DNA from: Nitrospinota bacterium
GTDB lineage: Bacteria; Nitrospinota; Nitrospinia; Nitrospinales; VA-1
Assembly (NCBI GenBank): GCA_038108555.1
Contig: JAYNIA010000067.1
Span: 1-11,151, forward strand
Direction: 5' to 3'
DNA: 11,151 nt
Shown here: positions 3,073 to 11,151 of the stretch, piece after piece
Layout: the number at the start of each line of letters is the position of its first letter
Position numbering within the stretch: position 1 is the first letter of the stretch
Notes under the pieces: generated by a model
What the model saw: the letters and a program-made list of their open reading frames with translations, nothing else
The model's database searches: none
What the model was told of the DNA's origin: nothing
Translations under genes and position numbers: made by a program

Positions 3073-3768
3073 TCAGTCACTATATTCAAACCTGTATCCA
3101 ACCTCACGTACAGTTTTTATATATTTTCCTGCATCGTTTAATTTGGCTCTTAACCTTTGAATATGGGTATCAATGGTCCTTGAAAAAACTCCATCCCCAT
3201 ATTCCCAAATTTGCTCTAAAAGAAAATCGCGGGTTTTAATTTTTCCCTGGTTTTGAATCAAGTGAGCCAGAAGTTTGAACTCAGTCAAAGTTAACTCAAC
3301 CACCTCACCCTTGACTTGAACCTCATGTTTACCCAGGTCAATGGACAAAGCCCCAATCTCAAAGAGGTTCTTGGTATCTGGAGAGTTTTGGACAGGAAAA
3401 ATTCTTTTTAGTAACGCTTTGACTCTAAGAATTAATTCCCGGGCATTATAAGGTTTAGTGACATAGTCATCTGCGCCAAACTCTAAACCTAAAACACGAT
3501 CAATTTCGTCATCCCTTGCGGTTAACATAATAACGGCAAGATCGCGAGTCTGCTAATCCGAGCGAAGAGCTTTACAAACTTCCATTCCATTCAACTTGGG
3601 CATATTGACATCTAAAATAACCAAATCAGGAAGTTTTTTTCTGATAATTTCCAGAGCAACTTCTCCATCAGGAGCCGTTTCTATTTCAAAACCCTCTTTA
3701 CCCAGTTTGAGCTCTAAAGCCGCTAAAAGTTCCGGGTCATCATCAACTAAAAGAATCCGGTTGTGCAT
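3073..3768 (-). pseudogene. OmpR/PhoB-family DNA-binding response regulator interrupted by one in-frame TAG (3553-3555)
   Basis: ORFs 3553..3768 and 3073..3528 share a frame and join as ...CKALRSD*QTRDLAVIMLTARDDE..., 232 codons in total. Receiver motifs ILLVDDD, DLVILDVNMP (phosphoacceptor Asp), MLTA and GADDYVTKP are intact. Winged-helix motifs LTLTEFKLL, RTIDTHIQRLRAKL and TVREVGYRF are also intact. It could be a sequencing error rather than a true pseudogene. Confidence 0.85.
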
Positions 3769-4526: not shown

Positions 4527-5752
4527 TGTCCGTGGGTATGTCCATTCATGTTTACCACATCTCTCATAGTCCATAACAAAATCAGACCGGGTAAAGCGAA
4601 AAGAAAAGTGGAAAAGAAAAATGTCGACCAACCCAATTCATCTACCAGAACCCCGGACATAGGCCCTACAAAAACCCGCCCCAATGAAGCCAGGGCGGAA
4701 AGTAGGGCAAATTGGGTTGCTGTGAAATTGTGGTTACATAATGCCATTAAAAAAGCCACAAATGCCGCTGTTCCCATTCCTCCTGACAGGTTTTCAAAGG
4801 CAATGGTAAAAATCATCAGCGGATAATTTTTACCCACCAAAGCCAAAACGAAAAACGACAAATTCGATACCGCTTGCAATATTCCAAAGAACAGTAAAGA
4901 TTTAAATAAACGCAACCGGGCCATAAGCACCCCCCCAAACAGGGCACCTATGATGGTGGATGCCAATCCCATTCCCTTATTGATAGCTCCCACTTCCCCT
5001 ACCGAAAAATGGACTCCCCGAATCAGAAAGGTGGTGGTCAAACTACCTGCAAAAGCATCTCCCAGCTTGTATAAAACGATTAAAGCCAACAAAGACCACG
5101 CACCAGTGCGGGAGAAAAATTCAGCAAAAGGTCCTGCCACGGCCTCCTTCATAGAAGCTGGAGGAGTCCCGGGATCTTCCGGTTCGGGACCAAACCAAAC
5201 GGCCACCACCACCACAGACATGATCGCCGCCATTAACATATAGGTAGCTTTCCAGCCCAGATATTCCGATAATATTAAAGCCAGTGCCCCTGAAACCAAC
5301 ATGGCAATTCGATAACCGGTGACCGAAACTGCAGCACCTATCCCTCGCTCAGGCTCCTTTAGAACCTCTGTCCGGTAAGCATCTATAGCGATATCCTGTG
5401 AAGCAGATAAAAAGGTAAGGCAAAAGGCCAGGAAAGCCAGGATTCCTAAAGCATTTTGCGGAGAAGTGACACTCATTCCAAAAATGAGGCCTGTCAATGC
5501 AACCTGGCTTAGAAATATCCATCCTCGACGCCTCCCCAAAACAGGAATCACAAACCGATCCATTAGAGGCGACCACAAAAACTTTAGAGTATAGGGCAAA
5601 CCCACCAGACTGAATAACCCAATAGTCTTAATATCCACCCCCTCCACCGTAAGCCAAGCCTGTAAAGTTCCCCCGGATAACGCCAAAGGAAGGCCCGAGG
5701 AGAATCCCAGAAACAGGACGGTGACCACTCTTCCATTCAAAAAATAATTCAT
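4523..5752 (-). CDS. ampG: AmpG-family muropeptide MFS permease
   Basis: Signature segments LGFSSGLPLALSGGTLQAW, PYTLKFLWSPLMDR, GRRRGW, SASQDIAIDAYR, GYRIAML, LYKLGDAFA, ENLSGGMGTAAFVA and TATQFALLSAL. About 12 hydrophobic segments in 409 aa. Confidence 0.96.
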   Translation of the reverse strand: MNYFLNGRVVTVLFLGFSSGLPLALSGGTLQAWLTVEGVDIKTIGLFSLVGLPYTLKFLWSPLMDRFVIPVLGRRRGWIFLSQVALTGLIFGMSVTSPQNALGILAFLAFCLTFLSASQDIAIDAYRTEVLKEPERGIGAAVSVTGYRIAMLVSGALALILSEYLGWKATYMLMAAIMSVVVVAVWFGPEPEDPGTPPASMKEAVAGPFAEFFSRTGAWSLLALIVLYKLGDAFAGSLTTTFLIRGVHFSVGEVGAINKGMGLASTIIGALFGGVLMARLRLFKSLLFFGILQAVSNLSFFVLALVGKNYPLMIFTIAFENLSGGMGTAAFVAFLMALCNHNFTATQFALLSALASLGRVFVGPMSGVLVDELGWSTFFFSTFLFALPGLILLWTMRDVVNMNGHTHGQ

Positions 5753-6023
5753 ATTTTATTATTTACTTTCAACAATTTAGCAAATATTTCCTAATTTAAA
5801 ATATTAATATAATAAATATGAGTTACCCTATATAGCATTAAAGCTGAATAATTTTTTATTTATTTCATCCAAAATCTTTAGCGGATTGTTATTATAGAAG
5901 GTGAGCAACGACTCAAGACCTTTCAGCAAAATTCTATCATTATTTCAGTCTGGCAAATAGGCTATAAATTATTGTTTTTTTATAACCTTTTTCTTATTTT
6001 TGTCCGATAAACTACTGAAATAA
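5753..6023. promoter_or_regulatory. AT-rich divergent intergenic region (ampG / motB-like gene)
   Basis: 271-bp, very AT-rich non-coding gap between divergently oriented genes, expected to carry both promoters. Confidence 0.6.
5983..6010 (+). promoter_or_regulatory. Candidate sigma-28 (FliA/SigD)-type promoter
   Basis: TAACCTTT-N12-TCCGATAA compared with the consensus TAAAGTTT-N11/12-GCCGATAA gives 6/8 and 7/8 matches. It lies directly upstream of the motB-like gene. Confidence 0.4.
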
Positions 6024-7625
6024 GTGACCATTATGCAAAATTCCGAATCCATTCAAATGATCAAGGAGCAGCTCAAAATTAAGACGGTAGAGTTGCGCAA
6101 AGCCACCGAGGAAAACGGCAAGGTTACCAAAAAAGTCCGAGATCTGATTGAATTCAACAAAGACGAAACCAAAAAGTTAAAAGAAGAAATTAAAAAGGCC
6201 CAGGAAGAAGCAGAAGAACAGAGAAATGAGGCCGCAGCCGCACGCTTGGCAAAACATGCGGGTGTTGAAGCTGGTAAAAAGGAAAAGGAAGAAGAGGAAG
6301 CCATGCTGACCAAAGAGCTTGAAGAGAAGTTAAACAAAAAAATGGCCGGCAAGCTCGAAGAACTAAAAACCCGCACCAAAACCCTGAGAGATAGAATCGA
6401 AGACGAAAAAAAATCCAACAAAAAGTTCCAGAGGGAACGTGATGTTTTGATGAAAGAATTAAAACGTCTTCGAGAAGACACAGGCACGGTCGACAACCTT
6501 AAGAAAAAGGTTGAACTGCTGAAAGTCGAATTAAATAAAGCTAAAAAATCCTCCAAAGCTTCCGGTGTAGTGACAGAAGATATTGTCAAAGAGAAAGATA
6601 CCCTGATCAAAAAATACGAAGACATGCTGTACGGCGGTCTGGATGCAGGTGAAGACGGCATGCTGCCTTCGGAGATCATTCAGGAGCTTAAGGAAGAAGT
6701 AGAAGATCTTGAAAAAGAGCGGCGGACCATGATTGTCGAACTCGAAATGTTGAGGGAAGACAATGCTGAAATGGATATGAAAATCACCCTGCTAGAAGAG
6801 GAAAAAGGCCGTGGGGGTAAGGGGGGGGATGAAGGTGGATTAAGGCCGGTAGAAAGTCGCGCTGCTCAAACTGCAGAATTCTCCGCCGGGCTGGAAAACT
6901 TCCTGATCACCTATTCCGATATGATCACCCTTCTCCTGGTTATCTTTGTACTGATGTATACCGTATCAAAGCTGGACGAAAACAGGTTTGCTGAGGCTTT
7001 GTCTTCCTTTCAAACCAAAAGAATGCGCATAGAAAGCGTTAATGTACGGTTGAGCAAAGATGAACTGAAAATGCTGCAACGCGTACGAGAACTGGTTAAA
7101 GACAATGTTGATGCAGAAAGTCTTGTTCGAAGTGACACAAGAACCATTTTGCATCGATTGCCCACATCCGACCTTTTTGCACCGGGTGAAGCATTCTTTA
7201 ATGAAGGTGCGCAAGACCTGATTATCAGCACTATCCAGGAAGACATGAAAGAAGGGGTCAAACAGCTTCTTGTGGATGGACACACAGACAATGTACCCAT
7301 CAAAAGTGCCAAATTTCCATCTAACTGGGAACTTTCTGCAGCCAGGGCTTCAAAGGTTGCTCGCTTTATAATTGAAAAAATGCGATTCCCACCGGAAAGA
7401 ATGGTGGTCACCGGATATGGGGAATTCCGACCCCTTTTGGAAAATACAAATGATGACAATCGCGCCGCAAACCGTCGCGTTGAAATTAAAATTCTGAAAG
7501 CCCTTGAAGTTGCGGACAAAGAGGCGAAAGAAGCAGGTAAAGAAAAAGGAGGACAAATGGGTGGAAATATGACGGATAAAAAGACATCCGAAGCACCCAC
7601 TTCGCCCCCGGCGGCAAATAAATAA
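6024..7625 (+). CDS. motB: MotB/PomB-family stator subunit with a long N-terminal cytoplasmic coiled coil and a C-terminal OmpA-like peptidoglycan-binding domain
   Basis: TM helix FLITYSDMITLLLVIFVLMY starts at 6900, with the conserved ion-binding Asp at 6918-6920 (residue 299). Plug-like SKLDENRFAEALSSF follows. OmpA-like motifs GHTDNVP, SNWELSAARA, GYGEFRP and RAANRRVEI are present. The ~290 preceding residues are K/E-rich heptad-like sequence. The start is uncertain (GTG 6024, ATG 6033 or ATG 6057). Confidence 0.9.
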   Translation: MTIMQNSESIQMIKEQLKIKTVELRKATEENGKVTKKVRDLIEFNKDETKKLKEEIKKAQEEAEEQRNEAAAARLAKHAGVEAGKKEKEEEEAMLTKELEEKLNKKMAGKLEELKTRTKTLRDRIEDEKKSNKKFQRERDVLMKELKRLREDTGTVDNLKKKVELLKVELNKAKKSSKASGVVTEDIVKEKDTLIKKYEDMLYGGLDAGEDGMLPSEIIQELKEEVEDLEKERRTMIVELEMLREDNAEMDMKITLLEEEKGRGGKGGDEGGLRPVESRAAQTAEFSAGLENFLITYSDMITLLLVIFVLMYTVSKLDENRFAEALSSFQTKRMRIESVNVRLSKDELKMLQRVRELVKDNVDAESLVRSDTRTILHRLPTSDLFAPGEAFFNEGAQDLIISTIQEDMKEGVKQLLVDGHTDNVPIKSAKFPSNWELSAARASKVARFIIEKMRFPPERMVVTGYGEFRPLLENTNDDNRAANRRVEIKILKALEVADKEAKEAGKEKGGQMGGNMTDKKTSEAPTSPPAANK

Positions 7626-7710
7626 CAACATTTATTCTATTTGATTAAGCTCTATTTTTTTATAAAATGTAATTAAATTCATTTACCCATTTTTAAAAGG
7701 CAGGGCAAAA

Positions 7711-9918
7711 ATGGATACCCATGAAGACACAAAAGTAGAAAATATAGAAACCACCGATTCGACCGAAAATGGCAAGGATAACCCCTTAAATCTCTCTGAG
7801 GAGCAGATTAAAAAGGCCCGGAAAAAACTAGCGATAGAAAACAAAAAGAATAGTTTGTCCGACGAAGAAACCCTTTTTTACAACCGGCAGGCCTTTTTAA
7901 GATTTAATAGATTCAAGATAGATCGCACCCTCGTCACTTTATCCGAAATCGACAGAACCATCTTCCTGATTGTGCCTCGATTGCTGCATGTTCATCAGGA
8001 AGGGTTGCCCGGCTATTTTGAAGGAAATCCCCCTTGCGGAATCCATAACTTCCAACTGGATATGGAAGCGCAATACGCGATGGAGAAAATGTTTCCAGAT
8101 GTGATTATCCGTAGAAACCCGGAACTAAAACCAGTCATCCACACAGCCCTTTTAATGGGTAGTGTGGGGTCCATCGCGCAAACCAAAAAGTCCGATTTAG
8201 ACTACACGCTTCTTGTAGACAAGAGGGATTTTACAGAAGAGAGCATGAAGCTTTTCCAGAAAAAGCTGAACCTCATTGAACAATGGACATGGGATAACTA
8301 CAACCTGGAAACCCACTTCTTCATAAACGATTATGAAGAGGTAAAAAACAATATCTTTGGTGAAAGTGATAGTGAAAGTACTGGGTCGGCACTTGCCAAA
8401 CTTCTCAAAGAAGAGATGTACCGAACCATGATTATTGTTACGGGAAAAGTTCCCTTTTGGTTGATCTCCCCTGTGGATGCCGATGATGACAGATATTATG
8501 AGCTGTACCAAAAATTATTAAATGGAAATACGCTTCTCAAAAAAGAAGAATTCATTGATATGGGTAACGTTGATGATATCTCACAAGGGGAATTCTTTGG
8601 GGGTTCCATTTGGGCATTGATTAAATCATTCAAATCCCCGTTCAAAACCCTTATGAAAATGGGTGTCCTCGAGGAATATATGTTTGGAGATACAAAATCC
8701 AACCTCCTGTGCCACCAAATTAAGGATAAATATTTTGGGGATACCCCTTATCTGGATATCGACCCCTACCTTGGTATGTTCGAACGGGTACAGCAGTTCT
8801 TTAAGGATGAAAAAGATGAGGATGCCCTGGATGCTCTGCGAACGGCTTTTTACTTGAAAGTGGGCACCCGTGTAGAACCAGAAGAACTGGAAAAAGGCAG
8901 CAAAAACTGGAAAAAGAATACTCTGGTTAAAATGCTCAACGACTGGGAATGGGATGCGGAAAAAGTTGAACGCCTCAACGATTATGGGAACTGGCAAATG
9001 ATGCATAAAGTTGACCTGGGTAACCGGATCAACAAAATCCTGATGGCATCTTATAAAAATATCTCCGAGAAAAATAAAACCCTGGATCCAAGCGAAAGTT
9101 TAATTACCGAAAAAGACACTCACCTTCTCGGTCGAAAACTATTCAGCTTTTACAGGACAGCACCTAACAAGGTAGATAACCTGGGAGCACTGGTAGATGG
9201 TAAAACTGCTGAGACTGAATTGACATTCCTACAGGAGAAAAAATCCTCGCGGGAAAAAGCAACCTGGTATCTCATTCGAGGAAAAACAAGGGCCTATCTG
9301 GAGCAAATTGATCCGGACAACATCATCAAAAAATCCAGCACCCTCCCATTTTTAATGGCTTTTACGGTTTTCAACCATCTTTATAATGATGAAACCCAGA
9401 TTATGGTAAGGGCCGAGGGCAACTCTATGAAAGATGGTGATGTCGAGAATTTGCTCGGTCAGTTGAGCCAATTTATAGCATCTGTAAACATTGCAGCCCT
9501 ATCCAACGAAGACCTGATGGCCGAAGCAAAGGTCAACCAGCTATTTATGCTAATAGACTTTGGCACCCCTCCCCCACCAGAAATTACGATGGGAAACATC
9601 AACGACTGCAAAAATAACGATGAATTGAACAAATTCATCTCCAGACGAATTGACCGGATAAAAAGCATCACAACAACTTATCTCACATCGTGGGGAGAGC
9701 TTTTTTGTAAAACCTATACAGGGTTAAACTGTATGGCTCGGTGTATTGGTGAGTTGACCCCCCAATTGGCACCTGAAAAGGTTGAAAAACCGGATTTTCT
9801 TAAGGTTTATATTCCGAGTGGCCGAAAAGAAATACTACAAATAGCTTGGTTGAATAACTATATTATCCGCTCCCTGCTGATCAAGTCACAAGCTCAAGCA
9901 GAGAAGGTCGCCAGCTAA
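7711..9918 (+). CDS. cyaA: Class I adenylate cyclase
   Basis: Nucleotidyltransferase-type catalytic motif MGSVGSIAQTKKSDLDY (8155-8205; GS plus DxD). Collinear class I blocks: LLHVHQEGLPGY, ETHFF, ESTGSA..LLKEEMYRT, EFFGGSIWALIKSFKSPFK, DPY, LRTAFYLK, LLGRKLFSFY..APNKV and TSWGELF. Confidence 0.92.
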   Translation: MDTHEDTKVENIETTDSTENGKDNPLNLSEEQIKKARKKLAIENKKNSLSDEETLFYNRQAFLRFNRFKIDRTLVTLSEIDRTIFLIVPRLLHVHQEGLPGYFEGNPPCGIHNFQLDMEAQYAMEKMFPDVIIRRNPELKPVIHTALLMGSVGSIAQTKKSDLDYTLLVDKRDFTEESMKLFQKKLNLIEQWTWDNYNLETHFFINDYEEVKNNIFGESDSESTGSALAKLLKEEMYRTMIIVTGKVPFWLISPVDADDDRYYELYQKLLNGNTLLKKEEFIDMGNVDDISQGEFFGGSIWALIKSFKSPFKTLMKMGVLEEYMFGDTKSNLLCHQIKDKYFGDTPYLDIDPYLGMFERVQQFFKDEKDEDALDALRTAFYLKVGTRVEPEELEKGSKNWKKNTLVKMLNDWEWDAEKVERLNDYGNWQMMHKVDLGNRINKILMASYKNISEKNKTLDPSESLITEKDTHLLGRKLFSFYRTAPNKVDNLGALVDGKTAETELTFLQEKKSSREKATWYLIRGKTRAYLEQIDPDNIIKKSSTLPFLMAFTVFNHLYNDETQIMVRAEGNSMKDGDVENLLGQLSQFIASVNIAALSNEDLMAEAKVNQLFMLIDFGTPPPPEITMGNINDCKNNDELNKFISRRIDRIKSITTTYLTSWGELFCKTYTGLNCMARCIGELTPQLAPEKVEKPDFLKVYIPSGRKEILQIAWLNNYIIRSLLIKSQAQAEKVAS

Positions 9919-9948
9919 AAAAATAAATTTAAGCGCAAATAAAGCCGT

Positions 9949-10773
9949 ATGGCAGCAGCAACACAAGAAGCAGAGGCACCCGCAGGTGCAGAACAGGAAG
10001 AACGTCAGGAAACAGGAATCGACACCGGCACATTGCTGGGTGTACTTTCTGGCGTGTTTCTCATTGTTATCGCAATCATCAGGGGGGGAGATGCGGCCAT
10101 TTTTGTAAACCTTAACAGCGCATTGATAGTTGTTGGCGGTACCGTAGCCACAGGCTTTATTGCATTTCCCTCTAAAAGGATTACGGTAATGATCCCGGTC
10201 ATCCAGAATGCCTTTAAACCTGGAGTATACGAACCGGAAGACTATGTAGACGATATTATGAGACTGGCCTCCCGATACCGTTCCGGGGGAATGAAACAGC
10301 TCGAAAACGAAGAAAGCAAACTGGACAACCGGTTTCTAAAGAGTGGCGTTGCCATGATCGTGGACGGATACAATGCCAAAGAAATCCATGAGCTCATGGA
10401 AAGGGAGTTGAATGCCATGCTGGATAGGCATAACTCAGGGCAAAAAGTTTTAAGGTTCATGTCTGTACAGGCTCCGGTATTTGGAATGGCAGGAACTCTC
10501 ATTGGTCTCATTCAAATGTTGATGCACATTGATCACCCGTCCACCATTGGACCGGCCCTGGCAACAGCATTGATTACGACATTCTATGGGCTTTTATTAG
10601 CAAACTTGATTTTAACTCCATTAGCAGCCAAATTGGGTTCCCGAACAGATATGGAAGGAACCCTGTTTCGAGCGATCAGGGTAGGAATTATGGGCATCCA
10701 TGACCGGGTGAATCCGCAAAAAATTCAACGCACCATGAACGCACTACTTCCACCCTCACAACAGCGAGAATAA
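9949..10773 (+). CDS. motA: MotA/PomA/MotP-family stator subunit
   Basis: N-terminal hydrophobic hairpin with SALIVVGGT. Cytoplasmic YRSGGMKQLE and FLKSGVAMIVDG. TM3 APVFGMAGTLIGLIQML and TM4 GPALATALITTFYGLLLANLILTPLAAKL, with both conserved prolines. Confidence 0.94.
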   Translation: MAAATQEAEAPAGAEQEERQETGIDTGTLLGVLSGVFLIVIAIIRGGDAAIFVNLNSALIVVGGTVATGFIAFPSKRITVMIPVIQNAFKPGVYEPEDYVDDIMRLASRYRSGGMKQLENEESKLDNRFLKSGVAMIVDGYNAKEIHELMERELNAMLDRHNSGQKVLRFMSVQAPVFGMAGTLIGLIQMLMHIDHPSTIGPALATALITTFYGLLLANLILTPLAAKLGSRTDMEGTLFRAIRVGIMGIHDRVNPQKIQRTMNALLPPSQQRE

Positions 10774-10778
10774 TTTAA

Positions 10779-11151
10779 ATGTCAAATGTAGATGAAATTA
10801 TTTCTTTAGTTCTTAAGGAGCCCAAACAAGATGGCGCAGATTTCAGCGGCTTCGACCTTAAAGGGGTGAGCCTGAATGGTGCCAGCTTTGTCTTTGCAAC
10901 ATTGTTGGATGTTGTAATGGAAGATGCGGAACTCCGCGAAATTGATTTCTCACAGGCTTCTTTAGACAAAAGCTCCTTTAAAAATGCAAAAATAAAAGGT
11001 GAGGCATTTTTTGACAATAAATTACTTTTTAATCAAAGCAACTATCATACCGCTAAATTTAGGGGCCATGAAATAGGAATGATCTTTCAGGACCCCATGA
11101 CCTCGCTTAATCCTTATCTAACCATTGAAGAACAGCTTGGCCTTGTATTGA
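10779..11151 (+). CDS. Pentapeptide-repeat protein, 3'-truncated; its last ~55 codons resemble an OppD/DppD-type ABC ATPase
   Basis: Absent from the ORF track because it has no stop in the window. ATG is 5 nt after the motA stop and the frame is open to the end. Translation: MSNVDEIISLVLKEPKQDG-ADFSG-FDLKG-VSLNG-ASFVF-ATLLD-VVMED-AELRE-IDFSQ-ASLDK-SSFKN-AKIKG-EAFFDNKLLFNQSNYHTAKFRGHEIGMIFQDPMTSLNPYLTIEEQLGLVL. Confidence 0.8.
   Translation, partial: MSNVDEIISLVLKEPKQDGADFSGFDLKGVSLNGASFVFATLLDVVMEDAELREIDFSQASLDKSSFKNAKIKGEAFFDNKLLFNQSNYHTAKFRGHEIGMIFQDPMTSLNPYLTIEEQLGLVL

Follow-up and report, generated by a model that had tools for sequence, protein, structure and literature searches.

Why does the gene for a probable adenylate cyclase lie between two stator genes? 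This arrangement is found in the window analysed here, a stretch of 11,151 nucleotides (nt) that makes up an entire contig (C67, JAYNIA010000067.1) of the 2.9-Mb genome of a Nitrospinota bacterium. On its forward strand, motB, the gene for a stator B subunit (6024/6033-7625), is followed by a class I adenylate cyclase homologue (cya, 7711-9918), by a pomA-like gene for a stator A subunit (motA, 9949-10773) and by the 5' part of a pentapeptide-repeat gene (10779-11009). Combining gene order, candidate promoters and patterns of gene loss, we consider it somewhat probable that these four genes form a sigma-28 motility operon from which an accessory, predicted Na+ stator and a motility cyclase are co-expressed, and that the cyclase does not need the stator.

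The original prediction, made from the window alone, had described three co-oriented genes with gaps of 85 nt (motB-cya) and 30 nt (cya-motA), and these coordinates were reproduced; motA and the pentapeptide-repeat gene are 5 nt apart, giving a four-gene unit in the order motB, cya, motA, pentapeptide-repeat gene. MotB has 530 residues from ATG 6033, the start common to the orthologues, and 533 from GTG 6024; the cyclase has 735 residues and is predicted to be soluble. Whole-genome searches were made in the phylum Nitrospinota and revealed a class I cyclase in 95 of 120 genomes, 83 of these being among the 102 genomes of the order Nitrospinales. Of the 65 motA orthologues, which are at least 59% identical, 63 have cya as their immediate upstream neighbour, and the other two are at contig edges; the neighbourhood that had attracted attention in the single window is thus not a chance arrangement. 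The order of the unit is kept across four families, with median gaps of 107 nt between motB and cya (37 loci), 24 nt between cya and motA (41 loci) and 3 nt between motA and the pentapeptide-repeat gene (41 loci). Outside the Nitrospinales, a mot gene was found in none of the 19 cyclase stretches of other families of the phylum, several of which are on short contigs. In a partial metagenome scan (7 of 64 parts, 80 of 593 loci kept), seven loci have a MotA with an identity of 64% or more, and cya is a flanking gene in six of these and in none of the 73 others.

A candidate sigma-28 (FliA) promoter precedes motB (5983-6010, forward strand), its boxes matching the published Escherichia coli consensus at 6/8 and 7/8 positions with a spacer 1 nt longer (PMC2859248). 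In 23 of 35 loci, the motif ends ~20 nt upstream of the start of motB, whereas shuffling gave 0.15 such loci on average and never more than 2; three additional loci, in which the start was not placeable, were left out. No such motif precedes any of four control genes (0/41, 0/38, 0/39 and 0/40), and it is absent before 14 of 14 PilZ-linked motA genes. It does precede flagellin genes of the host genome, and also ORFs (open reading frames) that look flgM- and fliD-like. Because the loose pattern is not enriched genome-wide (75 occurrences versus 64-74 in three shuffles), the case for sigma-28 is one of positional conservation. A candidate internal sigma-70-like promoter in the motB-cya gap (7641-7668, forward strand) came from a generic promoter scan that was at chance level overall; a TA[TA]AAT box is present in 26 of 34 motB-cya gaps, with a mean of 10.3 and a maximum of 16 in shuffled gaps.

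The unit tends to be lost along with flagellar genes. Among the 58 genomes that are at least 90% complete, FliG is encoded in 47 of the 49 with cya; of the nine without cya, all lack motA and eight lack FliG, and as these nine belong to four genera they stand for few events. In the five genomes without FliG and motA that were examined, none of the four genes lies between ampG and the FGE gene, and the stator was not found in any of the eight near-complete genomes lacking both FliG and cya. The median number of cyclic nucleoside monophosphate (cNMP)-binding domains is 14 in genomes with cya and 3 in those without.

The cyclase gene has repeatedly outlasted the stator. An orthologous motA is missing from 19 of the 83 Nitrospinales genomes with cya, three of which are fragmentary at the locus and one of which (G055) carries a variant operon. 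Both stator genes were lost, with cya and the pentapeptide-repeat gene retained, in the lineages g12 and g21/g22 and in genome G057, while G093 lost motA and locus L016 is without motB; in total, cya was retained in at least five lineages after the loss of stator genes, and g12, g21/g22, G057 and G093 are placed apart in the cyclase tree (which, like the MotA tree, is a quick tree rooted at its midpoint). The stator-less genera still encode FliG in most genomes, and only two flagellin-type matches were found in each of six near-complete ones. Before the orphaned cya, eight of nine g21/g22 loci retain the sigma-28 site and nine of nine the TA[TA]AAT box; the two g12 loci and G057 retain only the latter. 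In our view, no other observation indicates as clearly as this retained sigma-28 site that the cyclase has a link of its own to the flagellar regulon. In G057, an IS1595-family transposase gene occupies the former place of motB (L092 10860-11528).

What does the product of cya do? It matches Adenyl_cycl_N (PF12633) and Adenylate_cycl (PF01295) with 162 and 257 bits against cut-offs of 27, and the NCBIfam class I models with E-values down to 3e-131, yet below the model cut-offs. The GS...SDLD motif is intact. No transmembrane segment was detected in the protein (maximum hydropathy 1.26), and the ~150 C-terminal residues of E. coli CyaA are missing. The structure model (predicted local distance difference test, pLDDT, 89; predicted template modelling score, pTM, 0.85) has a nucleotidyltransferase fold; a fold search with it returned generic nucleotidyltransferases only, and a sequence search of the PDB gave no match. 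Matches in the ESM Atlas were all below 0.8, the named ones being mostly from Nitrospinota, and all 17 close cyclase loci returned were Nitrospinaceae/Nitrospinota records. In an alignment against E. coli CyaA with 88 Nitrospinales rows, some of them redundant, S103, S113, D114, D116, E185, W200, K260, K264, D300 and K332 (CyaA numbering), the catalytic positions known from mutagenesis work, do not vary in any of the 88 rows. The position of CyaA W118 is Thr166 here and Thr in all 88 Nitrospinales rows, whereas 15 of 18 rows of other families have Trp; W118 is presumably essential in CyaA, a role for which literature searches found no primary paper. Together with the adenylyltransferases among the fold neighbours, this exchange could mean an altered chemistry, either the formation of another cyclic nucleotide or nucleotidyl transfer onto a protein such as the stator or the pentapeptide-repeat protein. 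We hold this to be highly improbable, since the other presumed catalytic positions are invariant and the presence of cya tracks the number of cNMP-binding domains. The cyclase likely makes cyclic AMP (cAMP).

The stator subunits resemble those of a flagellar stator, with one unusual part. In MotB, MotB_plug (PF13677) and OmpA (PF00691) score above the Pfam cut-offs, the best sequence matches in the PDB are MotB, MotS and PomB, and Pfam and motif checks bore out that the channel Asp, plug and peptidoglycan-binding domain, which are the marks of flagellar B subunits, and the cyclase motif are intact, as had been noted. Hydropathy, a motif table and the structure model place a single transmembrane helix with the channel Asp, followed by the plug helix, at 6900-6956 (forward strand), and the OmpA-like peptidoglycan-binding domain is encoded at 7176-7475 (forward strand; PF00691, E 1.5e-13). 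The Asp residue (codon 6918-6920; D296 from ATG 6033, D299 from GTG 6024) is invariant in 70 aligned rows, and its position, 296, compares with 18-45 in the ordinary MotBs examined. What precedes it is an N-terminal arm of ~275 residues (residues 1-275, 6033-6857, forward strand; delimited by composition and the structure model), which is 48% charged, contains a heptad pattern and no membrane segment, and is modelled as helices 3-77, 86-175, 179-199 and 212-259; the pTM of the monomer model is 0.33, so that its local structure alone is reliable. The arm would measure ~32 nm if extended and, from the topology of MotB proteins, should be cytoplasmic. A fold search with MotB gave matches to periplasmic domains only. 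The arm is homologous to that of a paralogue encoded in a motA-motB-pilZ locus, with arm motifs common to both, and by this homology it is not specific to the cyclase locus. Word-index searches for MotA and for the MotB arm in longer, fused forms gave no match, a weak and uninformative result, as the length floor of one search left out even the known proteins of 500-580 residues.

MotA matches MotA_ExbB above the Pfam cut-off and aligns over its full length to PomA 2-238 (E 5e-46) with one two-residue insertion; its best matches are PomA and MotP, the NCBIfam scores being below the cut-offs. The alignment includes the expanded cytoplasmic domain with a torque-generating interface, a feature defined in PMC12505986. 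R111, E119 and D139 correspond to PomA R88, E96 and D114, which are indispensable for rotor contact, and T183, T210 and T211 to T158, T185 and T186 of the PomA Na+ filter (PMC10374538). Among the orthologues, R111 (equivalent to E. coli R90) is kept in 53 of 53, E119 (equivalent to E98) in 50 of 53 and the three Thr residues in 53, 51 and 53 of 53; D139 is invariant in 49 rows. Because MotA keeps both the rotor-contact and the Na+-site residues, the stator is likely a PomAB/MotPS-like flagellar stator of the Na+ type. The host genome has genes for two FliG, for several flagellins, for FlhA and for FliA as well as an ordinary motA-motB pair elsewhere, and thus for flagellar parts and a separate stator; by this gene content it is a flagellated Nitrospinaceae bacterium. 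With rotor-contact residues kept and a flagellated host, the idea that the motor had been repurposed for a non-flagellar role finds no support. No flagellar gene was detected among the nine other long ORFs of the window that were tested, in agreement with what had been stated for it. For positions 5600-11000, no RNA holder was listed.

Several observations weigh against the reading of the locus as a motility operon with a stator-independent cyclase. The first concern MotA itself: other residues stand in the place of the accessory PomA residues K89 and R232, the clade has invariant residues of its own, Y110 and K116, beside the rotor-contact Arg, and branches are longer in the cyclase-linked MotA clade than in the other two stator clades of the Nitrospinales. 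This faster evolution and the clade-specific residues in the rotor-facing loop, together with the unusual arm, would suit a non-flagellar 5:2 ion motor or sensor, similar to ZorAB or ExbBD and dedicated to the cyclase. Such a motor is very unlikely given that the best matches are PomA and MotP, that ZorA gave no match, that the rotor-contact residues are kept, that the sigma-28 motif is present and that none of the eight near-complete genomes without FliG and cya has the stator.

A second group of observations concerns how much can be read from promoters and gene order. The promoter patterns were composed after the sequences had been inspected and the related genomes are not independent, although the contrast is large. 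Conserved order alone is weak evidence because synteny is just as strong for ampG, yqiA and the FGE gene on the flanks. The usual order of stator genes, in which the B gene sits immediately downstream of the gene for A (a typical order, not a structural definition; PMC12505986), is replaced here by B, cya, A. The cyclase-linked MotAs form a clade (support of 97 in the Shimodaira-Hasegawa-like approximate likelihood ratio test, SH-aLRT) within a larger clade (98) whose other members are also encoded B before A; since these sister types share it, the B-before-A order is, as the tree has it, a trait of the MotA clade, with cya placed between both genes. The genes might share a promoter and nothing else: a cya-pentapeptide pair would have come to lie inside a B-before-A stator operon without any functional cross-talk, and its placement would have been kept through the joint need of flagellar-regulon expression and the slow change of gene order. 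The synteny of the whole neighbourhood, the stepwise and repeated losses of the stator genes and the location of cya away from mot genes in 19 of 19 stretches of the other families speak for this explanation, which we nevertheless consider improbable because a rearranged variant holds stator and cyclase together and because all other stator loci examined adjoin a signalling gene (PilZ, REC-HD or a fused REC domain).

The rearranged variant is the operon motB-motB'-motA-cya-pentapeptide of G055, a part of which was also seen in G068; having a different stator beside cya, it hints at selection for the pairing, and its stator type is also found without cya. It belongs to a third group of observations, which favour a direct coupling as envisaged in the original prediction. 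In that case, the cyclase would dock on the cytoplasmic face of MotA or on the MotB arm, and engagement, rotation or Na+ flux would modulate cAMP synthesis on top of a basal, stator-independent activity. In keeping with this, the interleaved order is found in 63 of 65 cases, no genome was found that has the cyclase-linked stator and is demonstrably without cya, and the lack of the C-terminal ~150 residues of the E. coli enzyme implies that the cyclase needs another input. Also, the g12 cyclase has diverged more (distance 0.89 versus 0.46-0.72 in the other 50 loci), as has the pentapeptide-repeat protein of this lineage, and acceleration after stator loss fits the loss of a partner. There is a precedent in Pseudomonas, where MotC stimulates SadC (10.1101/483339). 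Nevertheless, we judge direct coupling to be unlikely. It has to accommodate at least five stator losses with cya retained, a candidate separate promoter for cya, arm motifs common to the PilZ-linked stator and a cyclase without a membrane segment, unlike the interaction region of SadC. The cyclase of g21/g22, the largest stator-less lineage, shows normal divergence (0.62-0.64 versus 0.66-0.69 elsewhere in its family); among the 166 conserved sites of the cyclase, nine are changed in g12, two in g21/g22 and none in both, and no cyclase surface was found that is conserved only where the stator is present. What stands of the stator-cyclase module is therefore a conserved, motility-tied unit, supported by gene order, deletion as a block and a sigma-28-type promoter, whereas obligatory control by the stator is weakened by the persistence of cya in stator-less lineages, the lack of a common residue loss, the candidate promoter of its own and an arm that is not specific to the locus. 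The MotB arm, the pentapeptide-repeat gene, the sigma-28-type promoter and the Thr at the W118 position had not figured in the original prediction.

Carried further, direct coupling would make this a stator family in which a MotB arm of ~30 nm projects from the MotA ring into the cytoplasm as a fixed signalling mast, with the cyclase and its pentapeptide partner bound to the mast or to MotA and with cAMP as the direct readout of stator engagement or Na+ flux; we put this forward as a speculative picture in which we place little confidence.

Returning to the motility operon with a stator-independent cyclase, we suggest the following scheme: (i) once the flagellum is built, sigma-28 would transcribe the operon from the motB promoter, (ii) the internal promoter would provide basal expression of cya, motA and the pentapeptide-repeat gene, so that the supply of MotB would gate the assembly of the cyclase-linked stator, (iii) MotA5B2 would engage FliG, belonging to a set of three or four stators that can replace one another, (iv) the dimeric MotB arm may act as a cytoplasmic handle to regulate or position the stator, as suggested by its occurrence on the PilZ-linked paralogue and by a third long MotB whose tip is a receiver domain, and (v) the cyclase likely supplies cAMP to the many cyclic-nucleotide receptors of the cell, and cAMP may tune motility through stand-alone cNMP-binding proteins. 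In this scheme, cAMP signalling more likely acts on the stator than is set off by it.

How does this unit relate to known systems? It shares the PomA alignment, the rotor-contact and Thr residues and the Asp, plug and OmpA-like elements with PomAB of Vibrio, MotPS of Bacillus and the 'TGI4' flagellar ion transporters of PMC12505986, the accessible part of which mentions neither Nitrospinota nor cyclases, and differs from PomAB and MotPS in the ~275-residue MotB arm and the order B-cyclase-A. With E. coli CyaA it has both Pfam domains, the GS...SDLD motif and the other catalytic positions tested in common; the Thr at W118, the missing ~150 C-terminal residues and the location of the gene inside a stator operon with a pentapeptide-repeat gene set it apart. 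The pair MotC-SadC of Pseudomonas is likewise a second stator set linked to second-messenger signalling, but SadC is a membrane diguanylate cyclase bound via its transmembrane region (10.1101/483339), whereas here the cyclase is a soluble class I enzyme, not embedded in the membrane, and the link is genomic. In the FlhF/FimV-cAMP-MotAB surface response of Pseudomonas, the effects of cAMP on the rotor need the MotAB stator (PMC6855561), and in Vibrio cholerae AJ10 a class I CyaA raises Na+-powered motility via the sodium-motive force (PMC13079933); the accessible text of the latter describes no stator-cyclase operon. A comparison with the Zorya system shows the 5:2 motor family and a long coiled coil in common. 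The tail of ZorA is a long cytoplasmic coiled coil; here the arm is on the B subunit and the rotor-contact residues are kept. Zorya was rejected as an assignment, as no PADLOC family was matched by MotA or the cyclase and there was no ZorA match; MotB matches ZorB models through common MotB domains.

Neither a motB-cya-motA operon nor a long cytoplasmic MotB arm was found described in the open-licence literature. Read cautiously, the data point to an armed stator B subunit that occurs as two or three paralogues throughout an order whose members are abundant nitrite oxidisers of the sea, and to a class I cyclase within a putative sigma-28 regulon, which we likewise did not find described in that literature; the latter is a pointer to a control of class I cyclases outside the enterobacterial phosphotransferase system (PTS) scheme. 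Should direct coupling be true, the conversion of flagellar load into a second-messenger signal could be studied by reconstitution in a compact system.

The host encodes four motA homologues, that is, three motA/motB loci in addition to the cyclase-linked one. One is an ordinary motA-motB pair after a REC-HD gene. Another is the motA-motB-pilZ locus with an armed MotB (L088 2409-5194, contig C50), in which both stator genes are interrupted in the host; it is conserved across the order (L139-L168) and unbroken in most relatives, MotB having at least 470 residues in 28 of 30 loci. In the remaining locus, a gene preceding motA encodes a MotB with a receiver domain and a coiled coil before the membrane helix, which suggests a phosphorylation-controlled stator; this MotB has 607 residues in G100, where an HD-domain gene lies upstream, and is in pieces in the host (L094 1922-3745, L089 362-2918). 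Two different long-arm motB genes precede a single motA in some loci (L137 3664-10253, L091, L176 and L177), and in G057 a double-motB and motA set is convergent with the only fliG found. The two full fliG genes of the host are at C20 23894-24214 and C1 3521-3841, alongside one flhA found, and several relatives of the host genus have two or three fliG.

The pentapeptide-repeat gene, of which the window holds the first 77 codons, encodes 283 residues in relatives, and residues 75-283 are encoded at the start of contig C43 of this genome. In the window it gives way to ~140 nt (11010-11151) without a match elsewhere in the genome, which read like a fragment of an oligopeptide ABC-transporter ATPase and are probably an assembly tail. 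An OmpR-type response regulator gene (3073-3768, reverse strand) has an internal stop here and is intact, with 231 residues, in relatives. As for cyclic-nucleotide signalling at large, the host encodes one class III cyclase domain and 21 cNMP-binding domains, several as small stand-alone clustered genes; tandem clusters of three or four such genes (120-145 residues) are found at L135 8826-10337 and L136 6000-7629, and a Nitrospinales genome can have as many as 41 cNMP domains.

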